DNA of 64,000 nt, from contig CP064994.1 of NCBI GenBank assembly GCA_016699975.1, positions 711,828 through 775,827 of the forward strand. Direction: 5' to 3'. Positions 16,994 to 42,052 of this stretch are shown one piece after another. Each line of letters starts with the position of its first letter. Position 1 is the stretch's first letter. The DNA comes from Candidatus Moraniibacteriota bacterium (lineage in GTDB: Bacteria > Patescibacteriota > Minisyncoccia > Moranbacterales > UBA1568). The notes beneath the pieces are model-generated. The model saw only the letters and a list, made by a program, of their open reading frames with translations, made no database searches and was not told the DNA's origin. The position numbers and the translations under genes are program-made.

Positions 16994-17033
16994 CTTACTA
17001 TGAGTCTACAAGATATTCTAATTTACGCAAAGT

Positions 17034-17819: not shown

Positions 17820-17821
17820 GA

Positions 17822-18141: not shown

Positions 18142-18336
18142 ATTCACTTTCGCGTGACCGAGATAGAAAAAAGAGGAGAAAAGTTGTGACGGGCGTTCAA
18201 TTTTGCAAAAGGCCTTCGAATTCCGAGTGACGAATCGGAAAAACAAGACCAAGAAAAAGAGGAACATTCGTCCCTCCTTACGGTAGCAAAAAGAGCGGAA
18301 AAATCAAGAAAAGCGCCGCCAGGACACCACACACAT

Positions 18337-19264: not shown

Positions 19265-19390
19265 AGTTCGGATTCAATTCCCGACAAAAACACGCTGGTT
19301 ACAAAAAGTTCTTTCAAGCTCGTCTCCCTGGTTTCTGCGGGAGAGAGGGCGATCACCCCTCCTCTCTTCTTTCATTCTCCACTTCTCATT

Positions 19391-21432: not shown

Positions 21433-21514
21433 AGCAAAATGATATCATATTTTTCTCCTCAATTCCAATCGAGAGAAAAGAAGAAAAAAATTCTCCCAGA
21501 AAGGAGAATGTGTG

Positions 21515-21587
21515 AGCCACCTTGCGGGATCGAACCGCAGACCTGCGCGTTACGAGTGCGCCGCTCTACCAACTGAGCTAAGGTGGC
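21515..21587 (-). tRNA. tRNA-Thr (anticodon CGU)
   Basis: GCCACCTTAGCTCAGTTGGTAGAGCGGCGCACTCGTAACGCGCAGGTCTGCGGTTCGATCCCGCAAGGTGGCT. The cloverleaf has anticodon loop CTCGTAA and T-loop TTCGATC. Confidence 0.9.
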
Positions 21588-22442: not shown

Positions 22443-22524
22443 TTTTTACCCTCCTCAGAAATGTCAAAAAACAACAAAGAGCCCTCTGGCTCTTTGAGAC
22501 TTTAGCACAGGATTTTTTCTTTGA

Positions 22525-22974
22525 AAACCCCCTACCTCCCCGCTCCCTGCACCTGCCACAAGAAGGAGGAACAGGAAGTATCCCGACACCCACACTTCCA
22601 GGCACCGTTTTGTACAGAGCAGGTCATCCCGACAAAGGTAACGGGTGTCTGTGCACTCGTTGTATCAATATTCGCATGAGTCACTGTTGCTGTGACAGGT
22701 CCCTGGCACCAGTTTCCATTCTGTGTCCCACTACAAGCCCCGGTGTACTCAACCCAGCTACTGGTTCCAGGATTGTACCAATACCCCTTTGTGTACGAGA
22801 CTCGTGTTTGATTTCAGGAATCCCTATCGTTGCCTTCAGGGGTATGGATGTCACTTGCAGTACACTCTGCGGCAACAAGAGGCGTATTTGAAAGAAAGAG
22901 GTCAAAGGGACTGCCATAGCCTCCGGGGAGAGAAGAAGAAGGAGTGAGGGTAGAGCAGGGGGAGAAGGTGGGGG
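22525..22974. repeat. inverted repeat copy A (450 bp)
   Basis: The reverse complement matches 41460-41909 with 5 substitutions and 2 single-base indels, from a manual base-by-base alignment. Confidence 0.9.
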
Positions 22975-24637
22975 AATTCGAAAGCGTCGTTGCAGAGACG
23001 ATGTTACTCCAGATGGAATTGTTTCCGGAATCGTCGATTGCTTGCACACGATAGAAGTATTGCGTTGATGGAGAAAGGAGTGTATCAGAAAAAGATGTTT
23101 CGGTAGTAAATTGAACCGTTGACGGTGAAGTGCACGATACATCCAAACAGCGATCTACTTGATAGGTAGCAATACCAATATTGTCGGTCGATGCGACCCA
23201 CGAGAGATCTATTCGGGAATCGGAAACCGCAAGAGCAGACAATGTTCCTGGAGAAGTTGGAAGTTCATTCTCTATGAGGAATGTTTTCCCTTCCCACGGA
23301 TCCGAAACAACAACATTCCCGGCGGGATCCTGTGCCGAAGAAAAAGAAACAGACACCACCCCTTCTTGTGAACCTGCCGTATAGACATACGAATAATGAC
23401 TTTCATCGACCTTGGTCATATCCGCCTCGACCAGCGTTGCCGCACCCGAAAAAGAAATTTTTGGTGTTGGTATATCGCTCACTGGTTCCCCAAAAGAGGC
23501 AACAAGAGTTATCGAGCCTCCTGATTTAATGGAGGCCTTCTGTGGCGAATACGCAACACCGGCGCGTGGGGAATCGATATCGATAAATGGATCCGAGAGT
23601 ATCAGCCGATAGACCCCCGTTTGACTGAAAGCATAGACCACATTCGAAGTTCCGGGATTCGTTACGACACTCTCGAGAGTAACGTCCGAAAGATTCTTGT
23701 TGAGAGGAAACCACGCATTACTTGCCTCATCTTTCATTCGATAGATCCCCTTCCCAGATACTGCCGCGTACGCAATATTCGCTTCAGAGTAGTCACTTGC
23801 TACTGATCGGACGGGAAGTGCTCCAAATCCTCTATTGTGCTCGCTCCATACCTGTCCCAGTTCGTTACTTTTTTGTACCCCGGTCATCGTGGAAAGCCAC
23901 ATATTTGCACCACGCGCATGAAGAAGAGAAATATCATTCAGCGACAAAGGAGACGGGAGAGAAACCAAGGACCAGGATTCATCGGTTCCCGAAACAGAAA
24001 AAAGCGGGCTTGAAAACAACTTGTTCGACGCCGTCACAGCGTAGAGCTTTCCATTGACAAAGTCACTACTCAGTTTCAGCACGGACTCTCCTTCCATGCC
24101 AGCATTCTTGAGAGACCAACTGTCTCCACCATTATCGCTTCGAAACACTCCGGCTCCCGTAGCGACATAGAGCTGAACAAAACTCGATTGATCCAGCTCT
24201 ATATCTTTTATGGAGGTGTCGGTGAGCCCAACGTTCGAAATCGTCCATGAATTCCCGCCGAGTGTTCCGCGAAAGAAACCGTTTTGCGTTCCGATAAAAA
24301 CCGGGGAGGCCGCATTTGCTTCATAGAGAAACGAGGAAGTGTTGTAGGTCCAACCAATAGCGAGTGCGGTTATGTTCAGGTTCGTGAGACCCGTATTGAC
24401 GGGGAGAAATACGCTTCCGCGATCCGCACTTCGGTACAATCCCTGGTTCGTTCCCACATAGACGAAATCGTTCATCGAAATGACCGATTGAAATACGTAC
24501 CCGGAAGTGCCCGAGGGTGTAATGGTTTCCCAAGCATCACTCGCATGAACGGAAGCGGTGTGAAAGAAAGAAAAATAGAAAAGGAGTGCAAAAAAAATTC
24601 CGCTAACACGAGCTGCTCGTCGCGAGAGAGTACTCAT
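22532..24637 (-). CDS. secreted BNR/Asp-box beta-propeller + FN3 protein with Cys-rich C-terminal domain (two compensating indels and a resulting in-frame TGA at 22814)
   Basis: Signal peptide MSTLSRRAARVSGIFFALLFYFSFFHTASVHA. Repeated S.D.G..W motifs (SADRGSVF, SDNGGDSWS). An FN3 segment (IDLSWVASTDNIGIATYQVDR...YFYRVQAIDDSGN). The tracked ORF stops at 22814, but the same frame continues for 93 codons to a TAG at 22532-22534. That stretch encodes the domain conserved in the 40358-41902 protein. Confidence 0.65.
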
Positions 24638-24942
24638 ATTTGTTTGAAAGAAATTTACGAGGCGCTTTTCTTTTTTTTGATTCTCTGTCGAGAGAGCCGG
24701 GATTTGAATGACTCGAAAGTAAGGAATACGAACGACAGAAGCTTTGTTTTTCCTCCACACACCAAGTTCCCAAATAAAGAAGGAAGAAAATTTCGGAAAC
24801 TCTTTTCAGAACTCGGCAGCAGTTTCCTTACTATCTCCCGAGAATTCGGCACTGTTTTGTAAAGGAGAGAGTACAAAGATCATTGTAGAGAATTCTCTTC
24901 GAAACATCAAATAAAAAGTCATTCAATAAATTAAAATTACTT

Positions 24943-27579
24943 CTATTTTCCATGACATCGTTTATATTTTTTCCCACTCCCACAAGGACACGGGTCATTG
25001 CGCCCCACTTTGGAGGTCGAAGCAATTGGTTTTTGGAGACGCTTCGAATTTTCGGAATCACTATCGGAAAACGAGACTGTTTCTTCGGCCCCTCGATACT
25101 CAGCATTTTCGGGAAGCGGCACTTCCGAAGCGGCCGGCAAGGCCTTCACTCGAAACACGGTCGAGAGGTACGTCGTCCGAATACTTTCGAGAAGAACGAC
25201 AAACATAGTAAAGGCTTCCCGTTTGTATTCGACGAGCGGATCGCGCTGTCCGTATCCGCGCAGCCCTATTCCCTGGCGAAGATATTCGATTTCATCGAGA
25301 TGATTCATCCACAGAGCATCGAGCGTCCGAAGAAAGAGTGCTCGCTGAATCGCTTCCCACGCTTCTTTGCCAATCTCTGCCTCCTTTTTTCCATATTCTA
25401 CTTTTCCCTCTCCTGATAGAAATTCGAGCGCCGAACTGACTTTCATGGGCTGATCTTTCGATATGTCTTGAATCGTTTTATGAAGGAGAGCGAGCGATTT
25501 TTCACGATGAAGCGGAAAGAGCGATTCTGTCTCCCGCACAATACCGTCCGCATTCCATTCTCCTGACTCCGAAACCGCATGCCCCGAAAGAATTTTCTCA
25601 AGCTCCTCACTCAAGAGGCGCATCGTTTCACTTCTCATGTCGCGCGTTTTGAGTACGCTTCGGCGACGCCTATAGATCACCTCGCGCTGTTTGTTCATGA
25701 CATCGTCGTAGTCGAGAACGTGCTTTCGAATATCAAAATTGAATCCTTCGATCTTGTTTTGCGCACTCTCGATCGTACGAGAAATGAGTCGATTCTCGAT
25801 AGGTTCATCTTCCGGCAGACGCAGCGTCGTCATCATGCTCTTCAAACGATCCCCGCCGAACCGTCGCATGAGCTCATCTTCGAGCGACACAAAAAATTGT
25901 GAATTCCCCGGATCTCCTTGGCGACCCGCCCGTCCGCGAAGCTGATTGTCGATGCGTCTCGCTTCATGCCGTTCGGTCCCAAGAATGAAGAGTCCGCCAC
26001 GCTCGCGAACGCCTTCACCGAGCTTGATATCGGTCCCGCGACCCGCCATGTTGGTCGCAATGGTCACCGCACCCTTTTCCCCCGCTCGCGCCACAATCGC
26101 CGCTTCACGCTCGTGATTTTTGGCGTTCAACACTTCGTGAGGAACTCCGAGCTTCCCGAGAAGCCCACTCACATATTCGGACTTTTCGATCGCGATCGTT
26201 CCAACCAAAACGGGTTGGCCCGTTTCATGAAGGCCACGGATACGATTTACGATGGCACGAAATTTTTCTTCTTCGGTTTTGTAAATGACATCCGGAAGAT
26301 CCTTCCGGATCATCGAACGATTGGTAGGGATTTCAATTGAATCAAGCTCGTACACCTTCCGAAATTCTTCCGCCGAAGTCATCGCGGTTCCCGTCATGCC
26401 GGAAAGTTTTTCGTAGAGACGAAAGTAATTTTGAAAGGTGATCGTGGCGAGCGTTCGCGATTCTTTTTGCACCGCGACGTTTTCTTTGGCTTCGATCGCC
26501 TGGTGCAGTCCGTCACTGTAACGCCGCCCCACCATGAGGCGCCCGGTAAAGTCATCTACGATAATGACTTCGCCGTCTTTCACGACATAATCGCGATCGC
26601 GCTGAAAAATCACTTCCGCCTTGAGCGATTGTTCGAGGTGATGCACATACTGGACCCGCCCCGATTCGTAAATATTCCCAATGCCGAGCGCCGATTCGAC
26701 CTTGGCAATTCCCGCTTCCGAAAGAGAAACCGATTTCATTTTTTCGTCGACCGTGTAGTCATCCCCGCGCTTCAGCCCCGGCACGATACGCGCAAACTGT
26801 CGGTAGAGTTTCGTCGACTCCGCGTCGGGCGCCGAGATAATGAGCGGGGTCCGCGCCTCATCGATCAAGATCGAGTCGACTTCATCGACAATCGCGAAAA
26901 AAAGATCGCGTTGCACCATTTCTTCTTCACTGCGCACCATGTTGTCACGAAGATAATCGAATCCGAACTCGTTATTTGTCCCGTACGTAATGTCCGCCGC
27001 ATAGGCCTCCCGTCGAGAAACAGGGATCAGATTCTGAGGTTCCACACTTACTTCGTTGTGGTCGATGACGGTTGGTTCGTAGCGATACGAAATACCCTGC
27101 TGCAAGATGCACGCCGTCGAAAGTCCGAGCGCGCTATAGACCGAACCCATCCAGTTGGCATCGCGTTTCGCAAGGTAGTCGTTTACAGTAACAACATGAA
27201 CTCCTTTCCCCGCAAGCGCATTCAGGTAAATCGCCAAGGTCGACGTGAGCGTCTTTCCCTCGCCCGTTTTCATTTCGGCGATTTTCCCTTGGTGAAGTGC
27301 GATACCGCCCATCAACTGAACATCATAATGCCGCTCTCCAATCACCCGTTTCGCCGCTTCGCGAACGACAGCAAACGCTTCAGGAAGAAGCATCTCCAGG
27401 GTCGCGCCTTTTGAAATTCTTTCTCGAAATTCTTCAGTTTTTGCGCGCAGCGCTTCATCCGAGAGTGCGCTGATTTTCCCGTCGAGACGATTTATTTTTT
27501 CCACTACTGGACGAAATTTTGCAATCACGCGATCGTTGGAACCGAAGAGTCGGCTAAAGAAGCTCATAAAATACACCAT
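24943..27579 (-). CDS. secA: preprotein translocase ATPase SecA
   Basis: 878 aa. MKTGEGKTL Walker [19 protein letters not shown] and a C-terminal zinc finger [14 protein letters not shown]. Confidence 0.95.
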
Positions 27580-27772
27580 TCAAAATCAAAACGCATTCAA
27601 ATACCATTCAAATACTTGGGAACTGCTGCAAAAAGACTGGGAAGCAAAATGGCGTCGGTTTTCCAGGCCCTCCCCTCTCACAAACGCCGAAACTCTTCCT
27701 CAGTGTACGGAGAAACTGAGATGAAGTCAAAGCACGATTTTCGAAGTCGAACATGGAAAACGCAACAAAAAT

Positions 27773-28126
27773 TCAGAGTCGCGCTTCTCCGGCTATGGTC
27801 AATCGCTTTTTGATACTCCTGCCGCCACGGCGGAGTAAGTCGTTTCGTTTCTCTTTGTGTTCGACAATTTGCCGCTCAATATCGTCGATTGCCGCATCAA
27901 TGGAACCCTCAACACTCTCGGTCATTTCTTCGGATCGGAAGAGAAGCTTTCGCGGCAACACAACCATCACCTCCACACGAAATTGATTCTTTTTGTTTCG
28001 GTCGACTTCGACTTCGATCGAGTCGGCAGGGGTCAGAAGCTTCTTAATGCGAAGAAGACGCTTCGACACATACGCCATTTGCTTTCCGTCGAGTTCGACT
28101 CCCTGAAAGAGAAATCGCGTTTTCAT
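27773..28126 (-). CDS. hpf: ribosome hibernation promoting factor (short HPF/RaiA family)
   Basis: 117 aa. The pattern ...YVSKRLLRIKKLL...VEVDRNKKNQFRVEVMV...SEEMTESVEGSIDAAIDDIERQI is typical of S30AE/HPF. Confidence 0.8.
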   Translation of the reverse strand: MKTRFLFQGVELDGKQMAYVSKRLLRIKKLLTPADSIEVEVDRNKKNQFRVEVMVVLPRKLLFRSEEMTESVEGSIDAAIDDIERQIVEHKEKRNDLLRRGGRSIKKRLTIAGEARL

Positions 28127-28404
28127 ATCGTTGCAGAAAAAAATTATATGTCTGGTATAGAAAACACGGCTCCAATGCTTTCAAAATTATTGACTCACAT
28201 TCGCAGAAGTTCGTTTCAAAAATGCTCCACCCTCTTCCCTTTCAAATATCATGTGAGGAAACCCCCCACAAAGAGGAGGAGCATGAAAGTGAGTTTGAAG
28301 GAAACACTTTCGATTGCCAAAAGAGGAGACACGGTACTCTGGTGCAAATCTTTTGAAGTATATTCTTCTCTTCTCAACAAGTGATCTGCTTTTTTTCAAA
28401 ACTT

Positions 28405-29340
28405 TCAAAAGCCGACCATCTGCACTTCTTCCCGAAGAATAATACCGAGCTCCGAACGAACTTTTTGCTTCACAACACTCGCGAGAATGAGAATATTTTC
28501 CGCCGTAGCAGTTCCGACATTGAGCAGATAATTTGGATGAATATCACTCACGCGCGCACCACCGATTTGTTTGCCGCGGAGTCCCACATAGTCGATAAGC
28601 CAGCCGGCAGGAAGCTTTTCATCCTTCACGACCATACCCGTCTCTTTTTCAAATTCCTCACGAAGCCTTGCATCCTTGACGGGCGGATTCATGAAAAATG
28701 ATCCAGCACACAAAAGACGCTGTGGATGTTTTTGTTCGCGCGTTGCAATTGTCTCGCGCATAATTCTTTCGAGAACGGCAGGATCCGCACCCGGCTGCAA
28801 AAGAAAATGTGCCGACACAACGACATATTCGGGATGCTGCTTAAAAAGACTCGAGCGATAGCGAAATTCGCAGGCAGCGCGTTCGCGATGTTCGAAGGTA
28901 AGCGTGCGCCGATCGAGTATCCGAACCGACGCGACTGCCTGTGCAGTTTCCGCGCCAAAGGCACCTGCATTTCCCCGGACCGCTCCTCCCACTGTACCGG
29001 GAATACCAGCAAGTCGTTCGAGACCAGAAAGACCGTGCTCTTTCGCGTACTCAAGAAGCGCATGGAGTGACGCACTCGCGCCAACACTGAGCTGTCCCGG
29101 CGCCACTTCGCGCATGTCGACACACTCCATTTTTATTACCAACCCTTCCCAACCGCGATCCGAAAAGAGCACATTGCTTCCTCCTCCCAAGACAAAGACC
29201 GGCTCATTGTTTTGGTTTGCCCACTTAAATCCGTCCAGCAAATCTTGTTCCGAAGTCGCACGGAAAAAAAAGCGCGTCTTTCCTCCCACCCGAAATGTGG
29301 TGAACGAATGGAGATCAACATTTTCTTCAACATGGATCAT
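28405..29340 (-). CDS. murB: UDP-N-acetylenolpyruvoylglucosamine reductase
   Basis: FTTFRVGGKTRFF, VLGGGSNVLFSD and GIPGTVGGAVRGNAGAFG motifs. Start taken at MIHVEEN (ATG 29340). Confidence 0.9.
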   Translation of the reverse strand: MIHVEENVDLHSFTTFRVGGKTRFFFRATSEQDLLDGFKWANQNNEPVFVLGGGSNVLFSDRGWEGLVIKMECVDMREVAPGQLSVGASASLHALLEYAKEHGLSGLERLAGIPGTVGGAVRGNAGAFGAETAQAVASVRILDRRTLTFEHRERAACEFRYRSSLFKQHPEYVVVSAHFLLQPGADPAVLERIMRETIATREQKHPQRLLCAGSFFMNPPVKDARLREEFEKETGMVVKDEKLPAGWLIDYVGLRGKQIGGARVSDIHPNYLLNVGTATAENILILASVVKQKVRSELGIILREEVQMVGF

Positions 29341-29371
29341 AGTAGAGAAGGACAATACAATAAAAGAAGTA

Positions 29372-30791
29372 TCACAGCGATACCGAAACAAGTTCTTTCC
29401 CAATTTTCCACACATCGCCCGCTCCGAGCGTTACGAGAAGATCGTCTTTTCCCACCCTTGAGGAAAAATGAGCAATCACGTCTTCTTGTGTTGGAAGGTA
29501 CATCGCTTTATTTCGAGAATAGCGATTCATCAGCGTTACCATCTCGTGAGAAGAAACACCTCCCGCCGTTTCGCGGGCGCTTCCATAAATATCAAGGACG
29601 GCAACCTGGTCTGCGGCATCGAAGCTCTGGGCAAATTCAGGAAGAAGCGCTTTGGTACGAGAAAACGTATGTGGGTGGAATACCGCAATAATATTTTTTT
29701 CTGGGAAAAGTTCGCGGAATGCCGAAAGTGTTGATTTTATTTCTTCCGGATGATGCGCATAGTCATCATAGATGACTGCTCCGTTTCGCTCCCCAACATA
29801 TTCGAATCTTCGAGCGGTGCCGAAAAAGTTTTCCATGCCGACACGAATCGCATCGACATCAAATTTGAGGGCCCGAAGCAGCGTAACAACTGCACAAGCA
29901 TTGAGCGCATTATGCCGACCTGCGAGTCGCAGGCGAAATGTGCCCAAATCTTCTTCCCCTTCGAAGAGGCGGAACGATTGATGAAATGGTCCTTCGAGTA
30001 TTGGAGCATATTCGGAAATTCTTATATCGTTTCCGGGAAGAAAACCGTAGGAACGTTTTTCCGCTCGGGCGGACTTTGCGACGTCGAGCACTGCCGCACT
30101 GTCTCCCCAAAACACCAGAAAGCCGTGGGAGGGGATGCGCGAGACAAGTTTTCGAAACACTTCTGTATACGAGGCCATATCAGGAAAGAAGTCGGGGTGA
30201 TCCCAATCAAGACTCGTGAGAAGAACGCTCCAGGGAGTATAGTATTCGAATTTATTCTGATATTCATCGGCCTCCGCTACAAAATACAAACCCGCCCCCG
30301 GAAGCGCATTTCCGCCCCAGGAAGAAATTTTGCTCCCAACAAGCGCGAGCGGATCAACACCCAAAAATTTGAGTGTTTCCGAAAGAAGCGCGCTGGTCGT
30401 CGTCTTGCCGTGCGTCCCCCGTCACCAAAATTGAGAGTCGTTCTCGTGTGAGCGCCCCAACTGCTTCGGGATAGCTCATCACCCTCACCCCTTCTCGCGC
30501 GAAGGCACTCGCGAGTTCCGCATTTGTATCCGGTTTGTACGCGGTCGAACACACAATTGTATCGCTATCTTGAGGAATATTCCTCGGGTCGAATCCCTCA
30601 ATCGGCTTTATGCCACGCTTTGCAAGCACATCGTCGGTAAAAAATCGTTCACTCGTATCGGATCCGGTCACACGTATGCCTCGTGACGAGAGAATTTCGG
30701 CAAGAGCAGCCATACCGGCACCTTTGATGCCGATCATATGGACGCGCTTCACAGAAAGAAGAGAGGGTTCTGATTGAGTAAAAGCAATCAT
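29372..30791 (-). CDS. murC: UDP-N-acetylmuramate--L-alanine ligase, frame broken at a C5/G5 run
   Basis: The N-terminal fragment (VHMIGIKGAGMAALAEIL...LSILVTG) and C-terminal fragment (VDPLALVGSK...AEADEYQ...) join through 30426-30430. Removing one base gives VTGTHGKTTTSALLSETL, the Mur ligase P-loop. Confidence 0.85.
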
Positions 30792-30885
30792 AGATCCAGA
30801 AAAATGGAGAGCTTTACGAGGGGGAAAAAAGATCGACAAAGAAGAGGGAAAGAAAGAGGAGAGGATGCTCCGCAAAGAGATTTTT

Positions 30886-32070
30886 CTAGGAGCGACGCCA
30901 CGACGCTCTCCACAGCAATACCCGATCGAGAAGCGTCTTCCGAAGTTCTTTCTCTCGGATGAGTGAAACGATTCCCTCCGCAATGCGAAGACCCGCGTCT
31001 TCATGATCGAAGGTTTTCATTGCTTCTCCCATCCGGAGACGAAGCTGATCTTCCATAAGGAGTTGCTCAATTTTCCCGAACAACATATTCTCTCCGAGAT
31101 TTCCCTCTTCGAGAACGAGGGCACCGCCGACGCGCGCCATTTCGTAGGCATTCATGCGCTGTTCATCGTTTGCGGCGGACGGAAGCGGAATGAGAATGGC
31201 CGGCTTCCCTACCGCCGCGATTTCGGAAATCACATTCGCTCCCGCTCGAGAGACCACGAGATCGGCAAGAGCAAGGGCGTCGGAAAGCTCTCCGGTATCC
31301 AAGAACCCCGAGAAAAAGTATCGGCCCGAGAGATCTCCCAATGCGAGTTCATTTACTTGCTTCGTTACCTCCTCGTAATTCCCCGCACCGGTTTGATGAA
31401 TCACAAAAAACTTTTCAAGAAGGCGAGGCAAGATACGAATGAGTGCAGCATTCACCGCGCGAGCGCCGAGACTACCCCCCACAAAAAAAATCGCGAGTTT
31501 TCCTGGCGGACATCCGAATCGCTCTCGGGCGCGCGAAGCGGAACCTGTTCGAATTCCTTCGCGCACTGGATTTCCGGTAATTGCGACACGCCGCGCCTCA
31601 AAGAAGCGTGCGGCCGAGGGATACGCGACTGCGATTCGATTGGCAAATTTTCCCATGATTTTGTTGGCGACTCCTGGCGTCGCATCGGAATCATGGGTGA
31701 CGAGAGGAATGCGATATATCCACGCCGCAAACACCACCGGCACCGCCGCATACGCCCCTTTCGAAAACACCGCTTCCGGCATGTATCGGTACAGAAAATA
31801 GAGAGATTGAAAAAATCCCGCGATATTTTTGAAAATATCCGTCATATTTCGAAAGTCGAAGGGACGGCGCCATTTTCCGGAGAGCACTTTCTTCGAAGCA
31901 ATGCCCGACTCCCCGATAATCTTTTTTTCGAGCGCTCCCGTCGGACCCAGGTACAGAAACTCTGTTTCAGGTCCAAGAAGACCGCGCAGCTCCTTTGCAA
32001 TCGAAACAAGCGGAAAGATATGCCCTCCTGTTCCGCCACCCGCAAGGACGATGCGATATCGCTTTTCCAT
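30886..32070 (-). CDS. murG: undecaprenyldiphospho-muramoylpentapeptide beta-N-acetylglucosaminyltransferase
   Basis: 394 aa. N-terminal LAGGGTGGHIFP and the C-terminal ISEIAAVGKPAILIPLPSAANDEQRMNA are typical MurG motifs. Confidence 0.9.
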   Translation of the reverse strand: MEKRYRIVLAGGGTGGHIFPLVSIAKELRGLLGPETEFLYLGPTGALEKKIIGESGIASKKVLSGKWRRPFDFRNMTDIFKNIAGFFQSLYFLYRYMPEAVFSKGAYAAVPVVFAAWIYRIPLVTHDSDATPGVANKIMGKFANRIAVAYPSAARFFEARRVAITGNPVREGIRTGSASRARERFGCPPGKLAIFFVGGSLGARAVNAALIRILPRLLEKFFVIHQTGAGNYEEVTKQVNELALGDLSGRYFFSGFLDTGELSDALALADLVVSRAGANVISEIAAVGKPAILIPLPSAANDEQRMNAYEMARVGGALVLEEGNLGENMLFGKIEQLLMEDQLRLRMGEAMKTFDHEDAGLRIAEGIVSLIREKELRKTLLDRVLLWRASWRRS

Positions 32071-32110
32071 AGTACATTCTCTTTTTTTGTATCGGGATAT
32101 GAAGGAAAAA

Positions 32111-33254: not shown

Positions 33255-33443
33255 AAAATCTTCTCGTTACACCGCAATCACGATTCGATCGAGAAGCACT
33301 TTTGAAAATGCTCGGGCTCGTCTTTAGATATTGTTTTATTCATCGCGAGAACTTTCCAAGGAAAACGAGAGGAAGAGAAATGGAGGAGAACTGTTTCTCT
33401 TCTCGTGAAGCAGGAAACACGAAGAGCGGCAAACCAGCAAAAC

Positions 33444-34156
33444 TCACGTCGAAAAAGAGGCTTGAGGTGAATCGGCATCCTCTGTACGGGAAGAAGTTGT
33501 GCGGCGCTCAGCGCGTCGCCACGCTTCGATGGCCGCGTGATTCCCGCTTAGAAGCACGTCGGGAACACACCAGCCGTTAAAACATTCGGGTTTCGTATAC
33601 TGCGGATACTCGAGCACCCCTTCTTCGGCATGCGATTCGGTCTTGGCGCTTTCTCCATTCCCGAGCACGCCCGGAACGAGACGCGCGATTGCATCAGCCA
33701 CAACGAGCGCCGCGAGTTCACCTCCCGTCAACACAAAATCTCCGATCGAGAGTTCTTCGTCCGCAACATGCTCTGCCACGCGCTCGTCGACGCCTTCGTA
33801 TCGTCCGCAAATAAAAATAAGTTGATCGTATGCAAGAAGGCGCTTCGCATCTTTTGAGAGAAGCGCTGTCCCTTCGCCGACAAGAGGATGACTCGCGTAC
33901 GCGAAAGCTTCCCTGATTCGTTTTCCAAAGATCGAACCGCTTCAACAGCCCGGAATATCGGCTCTCCCTTAAGCACCATGCCCGCCCCCCCACCGTAGGG
34001 CGTGTCGTCCGCTTTGTGGTGCTTATCGGTCGTAAAATCACGGATATCGTGAACGGAAAAAAAGAGGAGTCCTTTCTCTTGCGCGCGCTTCAAAATAGAT
34101 TCGCCAAGATACGGCAAACACATGTTCGGAAAAAGCGTGAGAATATCGAATCGCAT
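33444..34156 (-). CDS. trmD: tRNA (guanine37-N1)-methyltransferase, frame broken at a T4/A4 run
   Basis: The N-terminus [12 protein letters not shown]...[13 protein letters not shown] and the C-terminal fragment ...[12 protein letters not shown]...[14 protein letters not shown] join at 33852-33855. Adding one base restores ...[24 protein letters not shown]. Confidence 0.85.
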
Positions 34157-34185
34157 ATCCGCATAGTATCACGCCTCTGACCGTC

Positions 34186-34219
34186 AAAAAAGAGAAACCC
34201 CTCACACGTGTGTGAGGGG
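34186..34219 (-). terminator. rho-independent terminator
   Basis: CCCCTCACAC-GT-GTGTGAGGGG, a 10-bp perfect palindrome. On the minus strand it is followed by TTTCTCTTTTTT. Confidence 0.6.
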
Positions 34220-34236
34220 ACAATTACATTTCTCTC

Positions 34237-34536
34237 CTACCTTGGGGGAGGAAATAAATAAAATGGAAACAGGGGCGGACCAAAATTATGTTGCTCACGA
34301 AGATTATTTCTTCTCATTCTCTCCCAGTTCTTTTTCCTTTGCTGTCGTATACTTTTCCAATCATCACAGTCACGGTATTCAAAGCAGCGACACCTCCAAA
34401 AGCTATCTCCATCAAGACCTCGACAGACATCTGTCCTTCGATGGCCATAATGTGGATATTCCTCCTGCCATAACGGAGAAGCAGAGGATAAAGATGTAGC
34501 CAATAAACAAAGAATACCTACAACAAAAGCTTTCAC
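34237..34536 (-). CDS. candidate small secreted protein (uncertain)
   Basis: GTG start 6 nt after AAGGAG. Signal-peptide-like KAFVVGILCLLATSLSSASP. The remainder is Cys/Arg/Trp-rich and may be out-of-frame noise. It overlaps the alternative small ORF at 34314-34448. Confidence 0.3.
   Translation of the reverse strand: MKAFVVGILCLLATSLSSASPLWQEEYPHYGHRRTDVCRGLDGDSFWRCRCFEYRDCDDWKSIRQQRKKNWERMRRNNLREQHNFGPPLFPFYLFPPPR
34314..34448 (-). CDS. candidate 44-aa hydrophobic peptide (uncertain)
   Basis: The ATG is preceded by AGGAGG 12 nt upstream. It encodes MAIEGQMSVEVLMEIAFGGVAALNTVTVMIGKVYDSKGKRTGRE, one TM helix plus a basic tail, with a G|QxSxE motif reminiscent of class III/Flp-type prepilin N-termini. 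Confidence 0.3.
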   Translation of the reverse strand: MAIEGQMSVEVLMEIAFGGVAALNTVTVMIGKVYDSKGKRTGRE

Positions 34537-34689
34537 TGTTTTCTCCTTTCCCCAAAATAAAGAGGGGAAATAAAAGTTGAAGGAACTACACGAGCATTCT
34601 CTTCGTAACAAAAAGGGGAGAGTTGTCCAGAGGACATCATTTTCTTTCTTTCCTTTTCGAGTTGTCTGTGCTGGCCTCGAGGAGCACAA

Positions 34690-34712
34690 AGAGGCGGGAC
34701 GAACCCGCCTCT
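34690..34712 (-). terminator. hairpin downstream of dnaK (AGAGGCGGG-N5-CCCGCCTCT)
   Basis: 9-bp GC-rich stem starting 30 nt after the dnaK stop. The T-tail is stronger on the plus strand (TTTTTCTCG) than on the minus strand (TTGTGCT). Confidence 0.45.
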
Positions 34713-34741
34713 TTTTCTCGTGAATCCGAAACTGATTCTCG

Positions 34742-36649
34742 CTATGCCTTCGTTTCGCGCTCTACCTCCGCATCTTTTGGCTCCCCTTCGGGCGTAGAAG
34801 GAGCTTCCGACGATCCGGCCTTTTCCGGACCCGAGGAAGTATTTTCTGATGCCGCTTTGTAGAGCTTCTCACCGATTTTCTGCGCCGCTTCGGAGAGTTT
34901 CTGCGAGGCCTTCCGAATCGATTCGAGATCGTCGCCGTTTTTCACAGCATTCAATTCGGTGATCGCTTCTTCGACCGGTTTCTTTTCATCTCCCGATACT
35001 TTGTCTCCCGCGTCGCGAAGCGCTTTCTCAGTCGTATACACCAAACTGTCTGCCATATTTCTCGTCTCAACGAGTTCCTTCTTTCGCTTGTCTTCCTCGG
35101 CATGAAGTTCGGCGTCTTTTTTCATGCGTTCGATTTCTTCTTTCGATAGTCCCGTCGACGACTCAATGCGAATAGATTGCGTTTTATTAGTTGCTTTATC
35201 CTTTGCGGTTACGGAAAGAATCCCGTTCGCGTCGATATCAAAGGAAACTTCGATCTGCGGAATGCCGCGCGGCGCAGGCGGAATGCCGTCTAAGATAAAT
35301 CGCCCAAGCGATTTGTTATCGGCAGCCGTTTCACGCTCGCCCTGAAGCACATGAATCTCGACAGAAGGCTGACTATCAGCCGCCGTCGAAAACGTTTTCG
35401 ACTGAGAGATCGGCACCGCCGAGTTCGCATCAATAATTGGCGTTCGCATTCCACCCAAAGTTTCGATCCCAAGCGTAAGGGGGGTGACATCAAGAAGCAG
35501 CACGTCTTTTACCGATCCTTTCAAGACCCCTCCCTGGATCGCCGCACCGACTGCCACCACTTCGTCGGGGTTTACCGAAATGTCCGGCTTCTTCCCAAAA
35601 AACTCTTCTACCGTTTTGAGGACAAGCGGCATCCGGGTCATCCCTCCTACCATCACTACTTCGTTGATATCGGACTTGGAAAATCCCGCGTCGTGAAGTG
35701 CCTTTTTCACGGGTTCGAGGGTTGCCATCACAAGATCGTGCACTAACTCTTCCAGTTTTGCGCGCGTAAGTTTCATGACGAGATGCTTCGGACCCGAAGT
35801 ATCGCTTGTGATGAACGGCTGGTTGATTTCAGTGTCCTGTGCGGTCGAGAGTTCGATTTTCGCCTTTTCCGCAGATTCCTTAATGCGCTGGAGCGCCAAT
35901 GGATCTTTCGAAAGGTCGATACCTTCTTGTTTTTTAAATTCATCAAGAATCCAGTGAATCACTTTTTGATCGAAGTCATCACCGCCCAAGTGGGTGTCAC
36001 CATTGGTCGATCGCACTTCTACCGTATCGGCCGCTACTTCGAGAATAGAAATATCAAAAGTTCCACCGCCAAGATCATAGACGGCGATTTTCTCATCTTG
36101 TTTCTTGTTGAAGCCGTAGGCAAGCGCCGCCGCCGTCGGTTCATTGATGATGCGCCGCACCGTGAGTCCGGCGATTTCCCCCGCTTCTTTCGTTGCCTTT
36201 CGTTGTGAGTCGTCGAAATATGCGGGAACCGTGATCACCGCTTCCGTAATTTTTTCTCCCAACCGATCTTCGGCATCAGTCTTCAGTTTTTGAAGAATCA
36301 TCGCCGAAATTTCTTGCGGGGAATATTCCTTGCCGCCCATCACCACTTTTACTCCCTCGCCTGCCTTCACGATTTTGTAGGGGAGCGTTTTGCGGTCTCG
36401 TTCCACTTCCGGGTCGTCGAATCGTCGTCCGATAAGGCGCTTGATGGAGAAAAGCGTATTCTCCGGATTCGTGACGGCCTGACGCTTCGCGAGAAGTCCC
36501 ACGAGTCGCTCACCGGTTTTTGAAATTGCCACCATCGATGGCGTCGTGCGATTCCCTTCTTTATTTTCTACGATCGTCGGAGTTCCTCCTTCGACAAACG
36601 CCATCGCCGAATTCGTCGTTCCAAGATCGATACCAAGTATTTTACTCAT
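34742..36649 (-). CDS. dnaK: molecular chaperone DnaK (Hsp70)
   Basis: 635 aa. [17 protein letters not shown] and the EEVD-less Gly/Ser-rich C-terminus. Matches Hsp70 throughout. Confidence 0.95.
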
Positions 36650-36709
36650 ATGACCTGCCTTTAAAGATATTAATAATCACATTTTCACTTCTCTTTCCTT
36701 TCTCTTTTC

Positions 36710-36734
36710 GTCCCTCGAAATGCTTTCGAGGGAC
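36710..36734. other. perfect palindromic hairpin between hsp20 and dnaK
   Basis: GTCCCTCGAAA-TGC-TTTCGAGGGAC (11-bp stem) with no U-tail on either strand. Possibly an intercistronic processing or stability element. Confidence 0.35.
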
Positions 36735-36752
36735 GCCGAAGAAACGGGAAGT

Positions 36753-37166
36753 CTACTTCACATTGACCGCGATTCGTTTCGGCTTCACTTCTTCCGCCTT
36801 GGGAACGGTGATGGTGAGAAGTCCCTTTTCATAGGAAGCATCCGCCCGATCGCCTTCCACTTTCATCGGAAGAATAATGGAGCGAGAGAATTCGCCGCGG
36901 TGAATTTCTTTGCGATAGTAGTCTTCGCGCTTCACCTCACTTTTCTCTTCGCTCGCGCCAGACACCGTGAGCACGTCGTTCTCAATCATGATGCTTACCT
37001 TCGTCGGATCGATATCCGGAAGTTGAAAATCAACGATCACGTTGTCTTTGTCTTGACGGATATCAACGGCGGGAGCAAACCCGCGCGCCCACACGTCTTC
37101 GTCAAAGAAACGATCAAGTTCGCGCATCGGTGACCAGTGAATAATACCTCGAGTCATAGTACTCAC
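36753..37166 (-). CDS. small heat shock protein (Hsp20/alpha-crystallin family)
   Basis: 137 aa. The alpha-crystallin domain has VDIRQDKDNVIVDFQLPDIDP...GEFSRSIILP...ADASYEKGLLTITVPK. Confidence 0.9.
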   Translation of the reverse strand: MSTMTRGIIHWSPMRELDRFFDEDVWARGFAPAVDIRQDKDNVIVDFQLPDIDPTKVSIMIENDVLTVSGASEEKSEVKREDYYRKEIHRGEFSRSIILPMKVEGDRADASYEKGLLTITVPKAEEVKPKRIAVNVK

Positions 37167-37422
37167 CTCCTTTCTAGAAAAATATTTTCATGTTTTTTAC
37201 GATCTCATGTTTCTCTCACTGCTTTCATCGAAGAGCGCCACAGTAACAGTGCGCATCTCTTTTTCGGAATGTTCTACAACAACTTGAGTGGAAGCGTGGA
37301 GCGAGAGTGAGTGAGATCCCATATTCGCCAAGAGAAATTCTTAGCCCTCTCATCCTTCTTAATGTTCTGTCCCTTCTCCAACACCTCCGCACCCTTTTCG
37401 CCGTCCCACTTTCGAATTTTCA

Positions 37423-38292
37423 TCAGCTCGTTACTACCTTCGCCGGACGAACTACACGCGTGCCGATCAGGTATCCTGGCTGAAGCATCCGAACAATCTT
37501 TCCTTCATTTCCTTCTCCTTCTCGACTCACCGCCTCGTGCCGATGCGGATCAAATTCTTCGCCTTCTTTCGCTTCGAATTTGACAAGACCCTGACGCTCA
37601 AGCATTTCTTCTATCTGCTTGCCAATATAGGTAAGTCCCGTCATCCACGAATTTTCTTTCTCACTCTCTGGGACATGGAGCGCCGCAGCGCGAAAGTTAT
37701 CGAGAATCGGTATCATCTCGAGCGAAAATCGCTCAGTGCACCGTGAAGAAAGTTCTTTCATTCGCTCCTCTTGCCGGCGTTTGTAATTTTCGAAGTCCGC
37801 AGAAATACGTTTCACATCATTCAAGTATCCATCCTCCCGGAGCCGCTCCATGGCGAGTGTCACAAAATACTTCACCATCTCTCCGTATTCTTCTGTGCTC
37901 TCCACTCCTTCGGCATTCACCCATCGATATTCGTCATACGCTACACCAAGCTGAATGTCCCCCGAGAGAAAAGAAGTAAGAGAGCCGATCACAATGACTC
38001 GTTCCCCCGAATATTCCGCCGGAAATACTCCGACAAATTTCGGAACGTCAACTTGTATATCTCCCACCGCCTTTGCTTCGATATCTCCTTCCGGAAAATC
38101 CCAGGCGCCGTACTTTTGGGCAAAAGAGGTGCTGGTATCCGCGGAGTGAAGGAGGAGAAACGCGTTTTTCTCAGCGTGAAAAATAATCAGTCTGTGTGAC
38201 ACTTCAAACAATTCCCGTTTGCTGGGGACACTCGTTTTTTCATGTGCGATTTTTGTATGCATATGTGTGGAGGTCAAAAATTTTCTGAGCAC
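37423..38292 (-). CDS. grpE: nucleotide exchange factor GrpE with an N-terminal degenerate Nudix-like domain
   Basis: The C-terminal 150 aa (ADFENYKRRQEERMKE...ILDNF...FDPHRHEAVS...GYLIGTRVVRPAKV) is canonical GrpE. The N-terminal ~130 aa (LIIFHAEKNAFLLLHSA...GAWDFPEGDIE...YRWVN) has a Nudix-fold strand pattern but lacks the REx2EE box. Alternative start at 38262. Confidence 0.85.
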   Translation of the reverse strand: MLRKFLTSTHMHTKIAHEKTSVPSKRELFEVSHRLIIFHAEKNAFLLLHSADTSTSFAQKYGAWDFPEGDIEAKAVGDIQVDVPKFVGVFPAEYSGERVIVIGSLTSFLSGDIQLGVAYDEYRWVNAEGVESTEEYGEMVKYFVTLAMERLREDGYLNDVKRISADFENYKRRQEERMKELSSRCTERFSLEMIPILDNFRAAALHVPESEKENSWMTGLTYIGKQIEEMLERQGLVKFEAKEGEEFDPHRHEAVSREGEGNEGKIVRMLQPGYLIGTRVVRPAKVVTS

Positions 38293-39035
38293 TGAGAGAA
38301 CACAACGAGGAGAAGGGTTCCCCCAGATCCGCCAATCATGCGTCGCATATATTCGAGGAGGGATTTATTCTTCGCATAGCGCATACGCTTCGGGCCGATG
38401 ATTGCCAGTACCCCGCGATCTCCGTCCGCATTTCGATATGGCGAAACCATCATGGAGCAGTTGGAGATTTCTTTAATCGGATTCTCGGCACCGATAAAAA
38501 TTTGAATCTCACCATCTTTCATTTTAAGAAGAAGCTGATCAAGCTTCTCATCAATCGAATCGAGCGCTTCGACCAATCGACAAACTTCGTCGAGCTCCCG
38601 AAACTCCGGCTCTTCGATAAGTTCCTTCATGCCGAAATCGTAGAACTCGTCGCGATTCACTACTCCCGACACCGCAAGACTCCCGGAAAGCGTCGATAAC
38701 AATTTCGCCGTCGTCCGCGCCAGTCGCGCGTTACGCGCTTCGAGGACCAAGAGTTCTTTTTTAAGTTGTGCTTCTTCTTCTTTCGAGAGCGTTTCCTCCT
38801 TCATGCCATGCTCGATATAGAAGCGGTATCCTTTGTCGGTTGGGATCCGTCCCGAAGAAACGTGCGGCTGATAGAGATACCCTTCTTCTTCGAGTGCCGC
38901 CATATCATTTCGTACGGTCGCGGCGGAAACCGGGAATTTAAAACGAGACAGAAGGGCTTCCGATCCAACAGGGAGCGCACTCTTCGTGTAGAGCTCGATT
39001 ACTCCCGCCAAAATGTCCGTTTGCCTTCGATTCAT
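38274..39035 (-). CDS. hrcA: heat-inducible transcription repressor HrcA (short form)
   Basis: 253 aa. N-terminal wHTH ILAGVIELYTKSALPVGSEALLSRFKFPVSAATVRNDMAALEEEGYLYQPHVSSGRIPTDKGYRFY. Confidence 0.85.
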   Translation of the reverse strand: MNRRQTDILAGVIELYTKSALPVGSEALLSRFKFPVSAATVRNDMAALEEEGYLYQPHVSSGRIPTDKGYRFYIEHGMKEETLSKEEEAQLKKELLVLEARNARLARTTAKLLSTLSGSLAVSGVVNRDEFYDFGMKELIEEPEFRELDEVCRLVEALDSIDEKLDQLLLKMKDGEIQIFIGAENPIKEISNCSMMVSPYRNADGDRGVLAIIGPKRMRYAKNKSLLEYMRRMIGGSGGTLLLVVFSQCSENF

Positions 39036-39055
39036 AGCCCCAGTATATCATGAAA

Positions 39056-39082
39056 TTAGCACTCGTCAAGTGTGAGTGCTAA
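39056..39082. promoter_or_regulatory. CIRCE operator (HrcA binding site)
   Basis: Perfect consensus TTAGCACTC-N9-GAGTGCTAA, 21 nt upstream of the hrcA ATG. Confidence 0.9.
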
Positions 39083-39365
39083 TTTCGTGATCTCCGGTAT
39101 TTTTGGCTTTAATAAGCCGCCGAGGAGAGCGAGGGGCAGGGTCGTACCCACCGGGAGAGAGCGAATGACACCGAAGAAGGCGGCGAAGTCCAAGGTACAT
39201 TCCTCGCAGGACACCAAAGCGCTCAAGGGACTCGCGCATATACTCGGAACACGACGGGAAGAAGCGACACACACGAAGCGGAAGTATCTTTCCAAGAGCT
39301 CCATGCTCCAAGGAAAGTGTTTTTTGGTAGAGGCGGAGAAGTGCAAGAAGAACTGCTTTCAGCAT
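39066..39365 (-). CDS. yidD: membrane protein insertion efficiency factor YidD
   Basis: LRLYQKTLS...[19 protein letters not shown]...[18 protein letters not shown] matches the YidD signature. Start taken at MLKAVLL (39365). The 3' end overlaps the CIRCE element. Confidence 0.75.
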
Positions 39366-39443
39366 AAAAATTTCCGGAAAAAATTTCTTCGGAGCACATC
39401 GTGATATAATAAAAAAACTTTTCTCCATTCGATACGCAATTCC

Positions 39444-40351
39444 ATGAAATCACTTTCTTTCGGAAAAGTCACGTGGATTGATGTCACTGATCCGGGACCA
39501 ACCGACATCCTTCATCTTCAAGAACATTTTAATGTTCATCCTGTTGCGATCGAAGAATTTTCGACGCCAACCTATCAGCCAAAGGCACTCGGATTCGAGA
39601 ATTGCCTGTTCCTCTCAGTTCATATTCCCCTTTTAATATTGAGAGTCGTACCACCTATCCGGGCGAAGTCGACATTATTCTTACCGCTACCCACCTCATC
39701 ACGGGACACAAAAGCGACATTTTTCAGATCAATGATTTTTTCTCTTCTCTCGAAAAGATCGAAGGAAGACAAAGACTCTTCATGAGCGAGACACCCGCCC
39801 ACCTCATGTACCACTTGCTTGAAAATCTGTTCGGTTCGTGTTTCCCTCGACTCGACCATATCGCAAAAAATCTCGACGCGATCGAAGACAACGTTTTTCA
39901 TGGAAAAGAAAAAGAAATGGTCTTCGAGATTTCTGTTGTGAAGCGCGATATCCTGAATTTCCGACGCACCCTGAAGCCGCAACGCTCTATTATTGAATCT
40001 CTTTTTCAGAAGCAAAGTCCGTTTATTCCCGACGGACTCAAGGTCTATTTTCAAGATCTGATCGGCACAAACATCCGTCTGTGGAATATTCTGGAGAACA
40101 ACAAAGAAATTATCGAGTCGCTTGAAGCAACAAACAACTCCCTCCTCTCCAACAAGCTCGATCTCACAATGAAGGTGCTCACCATCTTTTCAGCGATCAT
40201 GCTGCCGATGACCGTCTACTCGAATATTCTCGCGATGAGCGCGAGCATTCCTTTCGGACACAGTCCCTACGCCTTTTGGATTCACGTGAGCATCATGCTT
40301 CTCATTTCTTGTATCACAATTGTTATTTTTCGCATGAGAAAATGGTTCTAA
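39444..40351 (+). CDS. corA: CorA-family divalent cation transporter, frame broken at a T4 run; GMN motif replaced by AMS
   Basis: The fragments 39444-39785 and 39602-40351 join at 39631-39634. Adding one T gives ...[23 protein letters not shown]. The C-terminal two TM helices ([29 protein letters not shown]) align with CorA ...LTFIAGIYGMNF. Confidence 0.8.
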
Positions 40352-40357
40352 AAAAAT

Positions 40358-41902
40358 ATGAAGCCTGTTGCTCTTTCTTTGGTTTTCATTTCCTTCTTTC
40401 TTTTCTTCCCATTCTTCAGGATTGCACAGGGAGCAACGTATACTGCAATAAGTTGCTCAAGAGTCGATGTCCAATCAGCGATAGATACATCAATGAATGG
40501 AGATATCATTAGCATTCCCGCCGGCACTTGTTCGTGGAGCGATCCGGTCTCCATTGTCGGTAAAACCATCACACTCCAGGGTGCAGGCTCAACTCCTGCA
40601 GGAACCGTCATCAACTATTCCGGAACAAACCACAGTCTCATTGCAATTGACCCAGGAACACAGAGGGGCTCTCTCACAATTTCAGGTTTTCGCTTTGTAG
40701 GAGGAGATCCAAATTACTGGGGTGGAATGCATATTCAATTTAGTGGTCCCGACGAATGGAGGGGTCTCCGTATCCATCACAATGTTTTTATCGGATCACA
40801 GAATAATGTCATTCGCGGTTCGACCGAAACAGAGGGGTTGATTGACAATAATATATTTGAAGGGTCATCTCACTCTATCCAACTCGATGGAAGGGGTTCC
40901 GACGACTGGAATCGACCTATCGCTTACGGAAGCGCGGGTTTCTTTTTTGTAGAGAACAATACATTCAACAATGACGATACTTATGGCAATACAGGCTGGT
41001 TCGCCGTTGATGTAACGAATGGAGGAAGAAATGTTTTTCGCTATAATACTCTCCGAAACAGCTTCTGGGAGAATCACGATCGATGCCGCAGTGGACTCCC
41101 CTCTTCGAGAGCATTTGAAATCTACAATAACAATTTCACAAAAGACAGTGTGGGACATAAGGCAATAGACCTTTCAAGTGGTGACGGGGTTATTTTCCAA
41201 AATAACTTCAGTCTCTCTTGGAATGTTCCGATCGGCGCATACAAAGGCGGTGACGAAAGCTGCCTACTCCCCCCAAATGAGATTCCGGGAGCTCTCGCTC
41301 CTATTTATACCTGGGAGAATACTCTCAATACCGGAGGTTCAGCGAATACAGTATTCTGCACGAGTAGTATCGAACTGTGCAGTCAAATGAATTTCCAAGA
41401 AGGAGAACCAATGCCCAGCTACAGCCCGTATATTTACCCTCACCCCCTTGCTTCTTCCACCCCCACCTTCTCCCCCTGCTCTACCCTCACTCCTTCTTCT
41501 TCTCTCCCCGGAGGCTATGGCAGTCCCTTTGACCTCTTTCTTTCAAATACGCCTCTTGTTGCTGCAGAGTGTACTTCAAGTGACATCCATACCCTGAAGG
41601 CAACGATAGGGATTCCTGGAAATCAAACACGAGTCTCGTACACAAAGGGGTATTGGTACAATCCTGGAACCAGTAGCTGGGTTGAGTACACCGGGGCTTG
41701 TAGTGGCACACAGAATGGAAACTGGTGCCAGGGACCTGTCACGGCAACAGTGACTCATGCGAATATTGATACAACGAGTGCCCAGACACCCGTTACCTTT
41801 GTCGGGATGACCTGCTCTGTACAAAACGGTGCCTGGAAGTGTGGGTGTCGGGATACTTCCTGTTCCTCCTTCTTGTGGCAGGTGCAGGGAGCGGGGAGGT
41901 AG
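40358..41902 (+). CDS. secreted right-handed beta-helix-like protein with Cys-rich C-terminal domain
   Basis: 514 aa. Signal peptide MKPVALSLVFISFFLFFPFFRIAQG. The N-terminal pattern GTCSWSDPVSIVGKTITLQGAG and the repetitive N/G-rich strands suggest a pectin-lyase fold. The C-terminal ~145 aa are shared with the 22532-24637 protein. Confidence 0.6.
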   Translation: MKPVALSLVFISFFLFFPFFRIAQGATYTAISCSRVDVQSAIDTSMNGDIISIPAGTCSWSDPVSIVGKTITLQGAGSTPAGTVINYSGTNHSLIAIDPGTQRGSLTISGFRFVGGDPNYWGGMHIQFSGPDEWRGLRIHHNVFIGSQNNVIRGSTETEGLIDNNIFEGSSHSIQLDGRGSDDWNRPIAYGSAGFFFVENNTFNNDDTYGNTGWFAVDVTNGGRNVFRYNTLRNSFWENHDRCRSGLPSSRAFEIYNNNFTKDSVGHKAIDLSSGDGVIFQNNFSLSWNVPIGAYKGGDESCLLPPNEIPGALAPIYTWENTLNTGGSANTVFCTSSIELCSQMNFQEGEPMPSYSPYIYPHPLASSTPTFSPCSTLTPSSSLPGGYGSPFDLFLSNTPLVAAECTSSDIHTLKATIGIPGNQTRVSYTKGYWYNPGTSSWVEYTGACSGTQNGNWCQGPVTATVTHANIDTTSAQTPVTFVGMTCSVQNGAWKCGCRDTSCSSFLWQVQGAGR

Positions 41903-41909
41903 GGGGTTT
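41460..41909. repeat. inverted repeat copy B (450 bp)
   Basis: Reverse complement of 22525-22974 with 5 substitutions and 2 indels. Covers the 3' end of the 40358-41902 gene plus 7 nt beyond its stop. Confidence 0.9.
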
Positions 41910-42052
41910 ACATGTTCAAGTTAAGAAAGATAAAAAAAGAGGGAAGAAAAATTTTTGTCGCCTGAACCAAACAAAAATCATGGACGAACGAACAATTCTT
42001 CGTAAGAATATATACTCGCCACAAACAAGAAAGAGCACCTGAGAAAACCTTC

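Follow-up and report, generated by a model that had tools for sequence, protein, structure and literature searches.

Near-identical copies of a Cys-rich domain on unrelated secreted proteins form an inverted repeat around the secA-mur-dnaK region of a Candidatus Moraniibacteriota genome

The sharing of near-identical modules between genes of one genome is a fairly ordinary phenomenon that is known from other bacteria. In Porphyromonas gingivalis, for example, identical adhesin-domain repeats (cleaved-adhesin domains) are found within and between the surface-protein genes rgpA, kgp and hagA and have been linked to homologous recombination or gene conversion (PMC5266723). Other modules are likewise spread over exoproteins: accessory domains of the carbohydrate-binding module (CBM) or Ig-like type (CBM56, CBM6, F5/8 type C, FN3/Big), i.e. 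small all-beta sandwiches with many conserved aromatic residues, are added N- or C-terminally to glycoside hydrolases, polysaccharide lyases, peptidases and adhesin-like proteins or stand alone; dockerins and the C-terminal domain of the type IX secretion system (T9SS CTD) occupy the C-terminal slot of pectate-lyase-like beta-helix enzymes and are common to many unrelated exoproteins within one genome. Here we describe a Cys-rich domain of ~146 aa, encoded by a ~450-bp segment that is present as two inverted copies in a 64,000-nt stretch (the window) of contig CP064994, a circular, 1.05-Mb Candidatus Moraniibacteriota genome from wastewater that was built from metagenome reads. As in P. gingivalis, a domain, here of putative binding type, recurs almost unchanged across different exoprotein genes of one genome. 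The present case differs in that it concerns another domain family in another phylum, that the copies are single 3'-terminal modules and not tandem arrays, and that the comparison here covers a single strain.

A whole-window repeat search found a single long repeat, namely one inverted pair, and thereby confirmed what a first-pass annotation had read from the letters alone: positions 22525-22974 are the reverse complement of 41460-41909. The search splits the pair into two blocks (22522-22815/41619-41912, 294 nt; 22840-22974/41460-41594, 135 nt), each 99% complementary. According to a base-by-base alignment, the arms differ by exactly five substitutions and two one-base indels, as had been counted before, and their DNA identity is 98.5%. 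The arms and the positions at which they differ are as follows.

22522..22974, minus strand: left arm, 3' end of the BNR-propeller/FN3 exoprotein gene and 7-10 nt beyond its TAG (repeat search, alignment)
41460..41912, plus strand: right arm, 3' end of the beta-helix exoprotein gene and 7-10 nt beyond its TAG (repeat search, alignment)
Left 22871 C, right 41563 T: synonymous substitution
Left 22858 G, right 41576 T: Ala/Ser substitution
Left 22727 G, right 41707 C: synonymous substitution
Left 22691 A, right 41743 G: synonymous substitution
Left 22652 A, right 41782 C: synonymous substitution
Left, extra C in the run 22839-22842; right, none: indel of +1
Left, one G missing; right, GG ending at 41618: indel of -1

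Four of the five substitutions lie in third codon positions and are synonymous, again in agreement with the first reading. Given that ~24% of random single-base changes in the repeat sequence are synonymous, the probability of finding at least four synonymous changes among five random substitutions is 0.014. The tract of identity starts one codon before the motif PTFSPCS and stops 7 nt past the TAG, so that its extent, including the stop codon and the 7 nt beyond it, is also as first described.

The two genes that end in the arms encode exoproteins which both begin with a typical signal peptide, read directly from the sequence.

40358..41902, plus strand: right gene IPL87_03820 (QQS20667.1, 514 aa), signal peptide, pectate-lyase-superfamily parallel beta-helix, Cys-rich domain
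22814..24637, minus strand: left gene as annotated, IPL87_03740 (QQS20653.1, 607 aa), signal peptide, propeller, Ig-like region, FN3, ~45 aa of the domain

In the right protein, the N-terminal 368 aa form the beta-helix module, a member of a broad pectate-lyase-superfamily family, and residues 369-514 (window 41462-41899) the intact Cys-rich domain. The left protein contains an FN3 domain and gives weak matches to sortilin/BNR-propeller and F510_1955-like domains. Upstream of the repeat the two proteins are unrelated: the best BLASTP match between them has E = 0.06, and the domain matches agree with the earlier assignment of a BNR propeller with FN3 on the one side and a beta-helix on the other. 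For the propeller of the left protein no homologue was found. Homologues of the beta-helix module carry fn3, Big_7, T9SS CTD, dockerin or F5/8C in the same C-terminal slot, and the Cys-rich domain was found on none of them. The closest, P0200 (contig L007, 61% identical), has FN3 in place of the domain, and there is no copy of the domain on that contig; thus the fusion of beta-helix and domain may be recent. Two further close homologues of the beta-helix module, P0203 and P0206 (43% identity), stem from metagenome-assembled genomes of Bdellovibrio and Pseudobdellovibrionaceae, which, too, attack cells or attach to them. Directly downstream of the left arm lies the gene of a small secreted FN3-containing protein (21795-22442, minus strand, 215 aa).

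The repeat had first been taken as a pair only. This had to be revised, as the genome holds at least four copies of the domain on different genes, three of them ~99% identical. The third copy ends P0003 (IPL87_02540, 592 aa), encoded ~240 genes away; it is intact and 99% identical, with Ala as in the left copy and an intact frame as in the right copy, and the N-terminal part of the protein is unrelated. The fourth, IPL87_00055, is a 50-aa remnant with 48 of 50 residues identical. These two additional copies were compared as proteins, and the DNA comparison covers the two window arms. Outside the source genome, the nearest sequences are at most 62% identical. The pattern would fit concerted evolution, with 98.5% DNA and 99% protein identity within the genome, at most 62% identity elsewhere, and unrelated flanks. 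The architecture of P0003 (N-terminal module plus domain) recurs in P0031, P0008 and P0023 with an N-terminal identity of only 27-29%, which indicates that this fusion is old.

Near-identical domains on otherwise unrelated proteins point to recombinational spread or homogenisation, as far as can be judged from sequence comparison. The near-identity of the copies is most readily accounted for by non-reciprocal homologous recombination that took place recently between gene 3' ends, i.e. gene conversion or domain transfer. Such recombination would include the outright transfer of the module onto a new gene. The limits of the tract would then be the limits of homology, set by the domain linker on one side and by the sequence just beyond the stop codon on the other, and differences that are only synonymous would reflect purifying selection on the domain.

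One could also suspect that the assembly created the second copy, by duplication or as a chimera, and that the inverted repeat is not present in the genome, especially as the coverage of this metagenome assembly was low and small errors are numerous in it. We regard this as highly improbable. The two exoprotein genes into which the arms continue in frame are complete, unrelated to each other and each provided with a signal peptide, seven positions differ between the arms, and GC skew and gene order are unbroken across both junctions. Further copies reside on other genes of the same genome, contigs of relatives are also multi-copy, and 450 bp are easily spanned by Nanopore reads.

Similar relationships are found in other lineages, where pairs of domains are 87-94% identical on proteins whose remainders give no BLAST match to each other (e.g. 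P0066/P0071, P0017/P0020, P0022/P0024). The contigs L001, L002 and L003 contain two or three domain copies each. On L001 (scaffold of ENA ERZ15185891, 1269-2035), two slightly different versions of an FN3-protein 3' end with the domain are joined over a run of N. This join probably represents two paralogues or strains that scaffolding merged into one, and it shows the domain repeat to be a point at which assemblies of short reads break. On L003 (ENA ERZ22666170, a relative; 13061-16146), a gene ending in the domain is followed by two different pairs of HEPN and nucleotidyltransferase (MNT) genes. Each pair is directly followed by a partial copy of the domain 3' end (residues 50-146 and 58-146), in frame to the stop; the DNA of the partial copies is 86-90% identical to that of the full copy, and they have a ~70-nt hairpin region downstream in common. 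It looks as if toxin-antitoxin cassettes had been inserted into, or recombined through, the domain-coding repeat.

The domain had at first appeared to match nothing recognisable. This holds for the reference collections: neither Pfam nor NCBIfam gave a match to it (in the case of Pfam, on the window proteins and on 99 family members), a profile search of the PDB sequences reached E = 0.38 at best, and tblastn against 50,697 phage records found no match. It does not hold for proteins at large. While a word-indexed search with the domain returned one relative, an exhaustive HMMER scan yielded 632 cluster representatives at E <= 1e-3, 127 at E <= 1e-10 and 33 at E <= 1e-30, which bears out the early expectation that the domain occurs in other proteins. 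The organism names recovered for family members are those of Moraniibacteriota only. In the family alignment, Cys6, Cys37, Cys118, Cys127, Cys129 and Cys134 are invariant or almost invariant, conservation extends to several Trp and Tyr residues, and the signature WKCGCRD..C....WQ.Q contains a C-x-C motif. Two further cysteines, Cys80 and Cys89, are optional: among 138 sequences, 63 have both, 73 neither and only two have one of them. Such co-occurrence is the signature of a putative optional disulfide, and the domain is accordingly predicted to carry three to four conserved disulfides. An AlphaFold2 model based on a 31-sequence alignment is all-beta (predicted local distance difference test score, pLDDT, 76; predicted template modelling score, pTM, 0.72), and a structure search with it returned generic Ig-like matches only. 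Thus the predicted fold is a generic Ig/CBM-like beta-sandwich, as in CBM-like accessory domains, and the structural likeness holds at the level of a generic fold only.

Of the 142 occurrences of the domain at full length, 72 are C-terminal, 50 are N-terminal (i.e. just after a leader of signal-peptide length), 17 stand alone and three are internal. Its partners include fn3, TIG, polysaccharide lyases, GH5, GH16, GH26, pectate lyase/beta-helix and LamG domains, and furthermore CBM6, F5/8C and PG_binding_1; besides the carbohydrate-active catalytic modules among these, it is also attached to M23, CHAP, CAP and lipase domains. The domain is therefore a secreted, disulfide-stabilised accessory module that proteins can bear at one end or the other, and its family, though undescribed, is of a familiar type. 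It resembles the CBM and Ig-like modules in its predicted fold, its placement and its conserved aromatic residues, and differs from them in that it lacks a sequence match to any described CBM or other family in Pfam, NCBIfam or the PDB sequences, and in its conserved disulfides with the C-x-C motif (WKCGCRD..C). Because it occurs at the N-terminus, at the C-terminus or alone, and on varied exoenzymes and FN3 proteins, its predicted role is most likely that of a binding or targeting module for polysaccharide, the cell wall or the cell surface.

The first-pass annotation had proposed a cell-surface anchoring or sorting module. Anchoring or binding is plausible on the grounds just given, and sorting fails. 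A C-terminal secretion, sorting or anchoring signal like T9SS CTD, LPXTG or PEP-CTERM, kept identical because one sorting machine reads it, would agree with the C-terminal position of all known copies in the source genome and with the T9SS CTD (PF18962 in P0207 and P0236) or dockerin (PF00404 in P0220) that beta-helix homologues hold at the same position. It is nevertheless very unlikely: the many N-terminal and stand-alone occurrences are at odds with a strict C-terminal position, there is no Pfam or NCBIfam match to a sorting signal (PF18962/TIGR04183 etc.), the sequence ends in ...WQVQGAGR without a hydrophobic helix or motif, and what is shared is a folded disulfide domain of 146 aa. By the same token, the domain differs from dockerins and T9SS CTDs in having no sequence or motif similarity to them and in being often N-terminal or alone. 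We know of no cohesin-like partner or T9SS in Patescibacteria.

The left copy of the domain is not intact as assembled. Its two indels lie 27 nt apart and leave nine codons out of frame, and the second of them gives rise to an in-frame TGA at 22814-22816.

22814..22843, minus strand: lesion, extra C in the C-run 22839-22842 and a G missing 27 nt downstream; out-of-frame codons PEGNDRDS, then TGA
22532..22813, minus strand: rest of the left domain copy, original frame regained and open to the TAG at 22532-22534; three synonymous changes relative to the right copy, none other
20325-21440, minus strand: prfB, encoding release factor 2 (RF2), with a CTTTGAC programmed +1 frameshift site at 21369; between tRNA-Thr (21514-21587) and ftsE/ftsX (18278-20071)

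At the lesion the left copy reads ...HTPEGNDRDS*NQTRV... and the right copy ...HTLKATIGIPGNQTRV...; over a longer stretch, the left copy reads ...ECTASDIHTPEGNDRDS*NQTRVSYTKGY... and the right copy ...ECTSSDIHTLKATIGIPGNQTRVSYTKGY... Homologues elsewhere have HT(L/I)..T.G..G at this site, and homologues and the third copy read LKATIGIPG or LTATLGIPG. Since homologues from other organisms and the third copy share its reading here, the right-hand version is ancestral. As assembled, the left protein ends ~45 residues into the domain and loses ~100 aa of it; the GenBank entry, made with the Prokaryotic Genome Annotation Pipeline (PGAP), consequently gives the 607-aa protein followed by a 50-aa remnant open reading frame (ORF), IPL87_03735, that comprises the last 50 codons of the domain copy. 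Reading TGA as Gly (genetic code 25 or 4) to rescue the left copy was ruled out, because TGA is the commonest stop in the window, ending 38 of its 67 crude ORFs, and because RF2 is present (prfB match of 414.6 bits against an NCBIfam cut-off of 370). In this genome, TGA genuinely terminates translation. The earlier suggestion that both copies are translated and homogenised therefore stands for homogenisation or recent transfer as the best reading, and not for an intact left copy in the sequence as assembled.

Is the lesion a property of the genome or of its assembly? The sequence (Moranbacterales, UBA1568) has a coverage of 5.4x Illumina and 10.9x Nanopore, and was assembled with CANU and polished with Racon, medaka and Racon-Illumina (Singleton et al. 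2021, PMC8012365, Supplementary Data 3). At least five other genes of the window are split into two overlapping ORFs each.

29372-31004: murC, shift from G4 to G5 at ~30416-30420
32111-33254: ftsW
33444-34156: trmD, shift from A5 to A4 near 33852
39444-40351: corA
57961-59131: rmuC, shift in a G-run near 58410

A homopolymer run is the site of the shift in all three split genes that were resolved. As a living cell could hardly do with broken versions of the essential genes murC, ftsW and trmD, these splits must be errors, and most likely all five are indel errors of the assembly. Both lesions in the left copy are run-length changes as well, and their location is a multi-copy repeat, in which polishing with short reads is presumably weakest. 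In view of the low coverage and of the other split genes with their homopolymer shifts, the frameshift and TGA of the left copy are probably an artefact, namely two homopolymer runs of wrong length in a Nanopore assembly of low coverage. Both proteins would in that case probably bear the full domain in the cell.

The alternative is that the left copy became a genuine pseudo-domain by recent inactivation and that the cell makes a BNR/FN3 protein lacking its C-terminal module, the open frame downstream being due to the recency of the event or to patching by gene conversion. The truncated protein and remnant ORF given by PGAP would be in line with this. That all three differences downstream of the TGA are synonymous speaks against it, as do the low coverage, the frameshifted essential genes and the nature of the two lesions, and we consider a real pseudo-domain rather unlikely, though clearly less so than the other alternatives discussed here; the same applies to the explanation it offers for the open frame. 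Taken as a whole, the reading we favour, with somewhat better than even confidence, comprises paralogous copies of a binding-type module, their recombinational homogenisation and an artefactual lesion. Several observations weigh against it. Two indels within 27 nt exceed the average error density of the window (~1 detected frameshift per 5-10 kb), and the fourth copy is likewise annotated as a 50-aa remnant only, suggesting that decaying copies exist; both points favour a genuine pseudo-domain. With regard to homogenisation, the closest beta-helix homologue is without the domain, and a one-off recent fusion fits that gene as well as conversion does. Finally, a single recent burst of duplication would fit the copies as well as ongoing conversion does.

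As the first-pass annotation had noted, the repeats bracket secA, the mur/ftsW genes and the dnaK operon, and gene identification between the arms agrees with this.

24943..40351: bracketed genes, with secA, murB, murC (split), murG, ftsW (split), trmD (split), dnaK, grpE, hrcA and yidD on the minus strand and corA (split) on the plus strand

Inverted repeats of 450 bp and 98.5% identity are an adequate substrate for RecA-type homologous recombination, and a crossover within the domain would keep both genes whole and swap their domain copies. An inversion of the 18.5-kb secA-mur-dnaK block, as proposed earlier, is thus a formal possibility and mechanistically possible, and in this respect the locus resembles the long near-identical inverted repeats of rRNA operons or insertion sequence (IS) copies around core genes. 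It differs from them in that composition and gene order do not support inversion. GC skew is negative inside and outside the block, with no change of sign at either arm, nearly all bracketed genes have the same orientation as those in the flanks, and the series secA (inside), prfB, ftsE, ftsX (outside) runs on one strand across the left arm, in the order known from Bacillus. Based on the skew and on this gene order, the assembled orientation fits as the stable one. That the repeats are the ends of a functional invertible segment which switches the secA-mur-dnaK block is extremely improbable, despite their suitability for homologous recombination. In addition to the evidence from skew and gene orientation, no recombinase or invertase gene was found within or beside the segment, where the bracketed and adjacent genes are housekeeping genes, and the repeats are 450 bp of coding sequence instead of the short inverted repeats that accompany an invertase gene in site-specific switches. 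Moreover, secA, mur and dnaK genes would, when inverted, presumably run head-on to replication.

Elsewhere in the window, the region 14000-18000 stands out by its low GC content (0.35-0.39 versus 0.48 for the window). It adjoins tRNA-Gln (18070-18141) and contains an Mrr-like restriction endonuclease gene (15704-16741) and genes of hypothetical proteins. It probably represents a small acquired island. The region from 10 to 14 kb has a positive GC skew, unlike the rest of the window.

The case has consequences for the reading of metagenome-derived genomes, as it shows how false pseudogenes can arise in low-coverage long-read assemblies, especially within repeats. The family itself, 632 cluster representatives strong, has no entry in Pfam or NCBIfam, to which it could be contributed. 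A more far-reaching idea, which we put forward as speculation and hold to be improbable, is that the domain is a lineage-restricted attachment module of Moraniibacteriota or Patescibacteria that fixes a set of exoenzymes to one species-specific ligand (on a host cell's surface, or in the wall or S-layer of the bacterium itself), comparable to dockerin-cohesin or S-layer homology (SLH) systems. Recombination would then keep the copies identical so that all cargo tracks the ligand, and the copies would in turn become hot spots for rearrangement and for the insertion of HEPN-MNT cassettes, as in L003. Attachment to other cells is the presumed way of life of Patescibacteria, and very little has been learnt about the targeting of their secreted enzymes. 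A module found alike on lyases, glycosidases, peptidases and adhesin-like proteins, and kept identical in one 1-Mb genome, may reasonably be considered as a candidate for this targeting role, and it would be easy to express and test.

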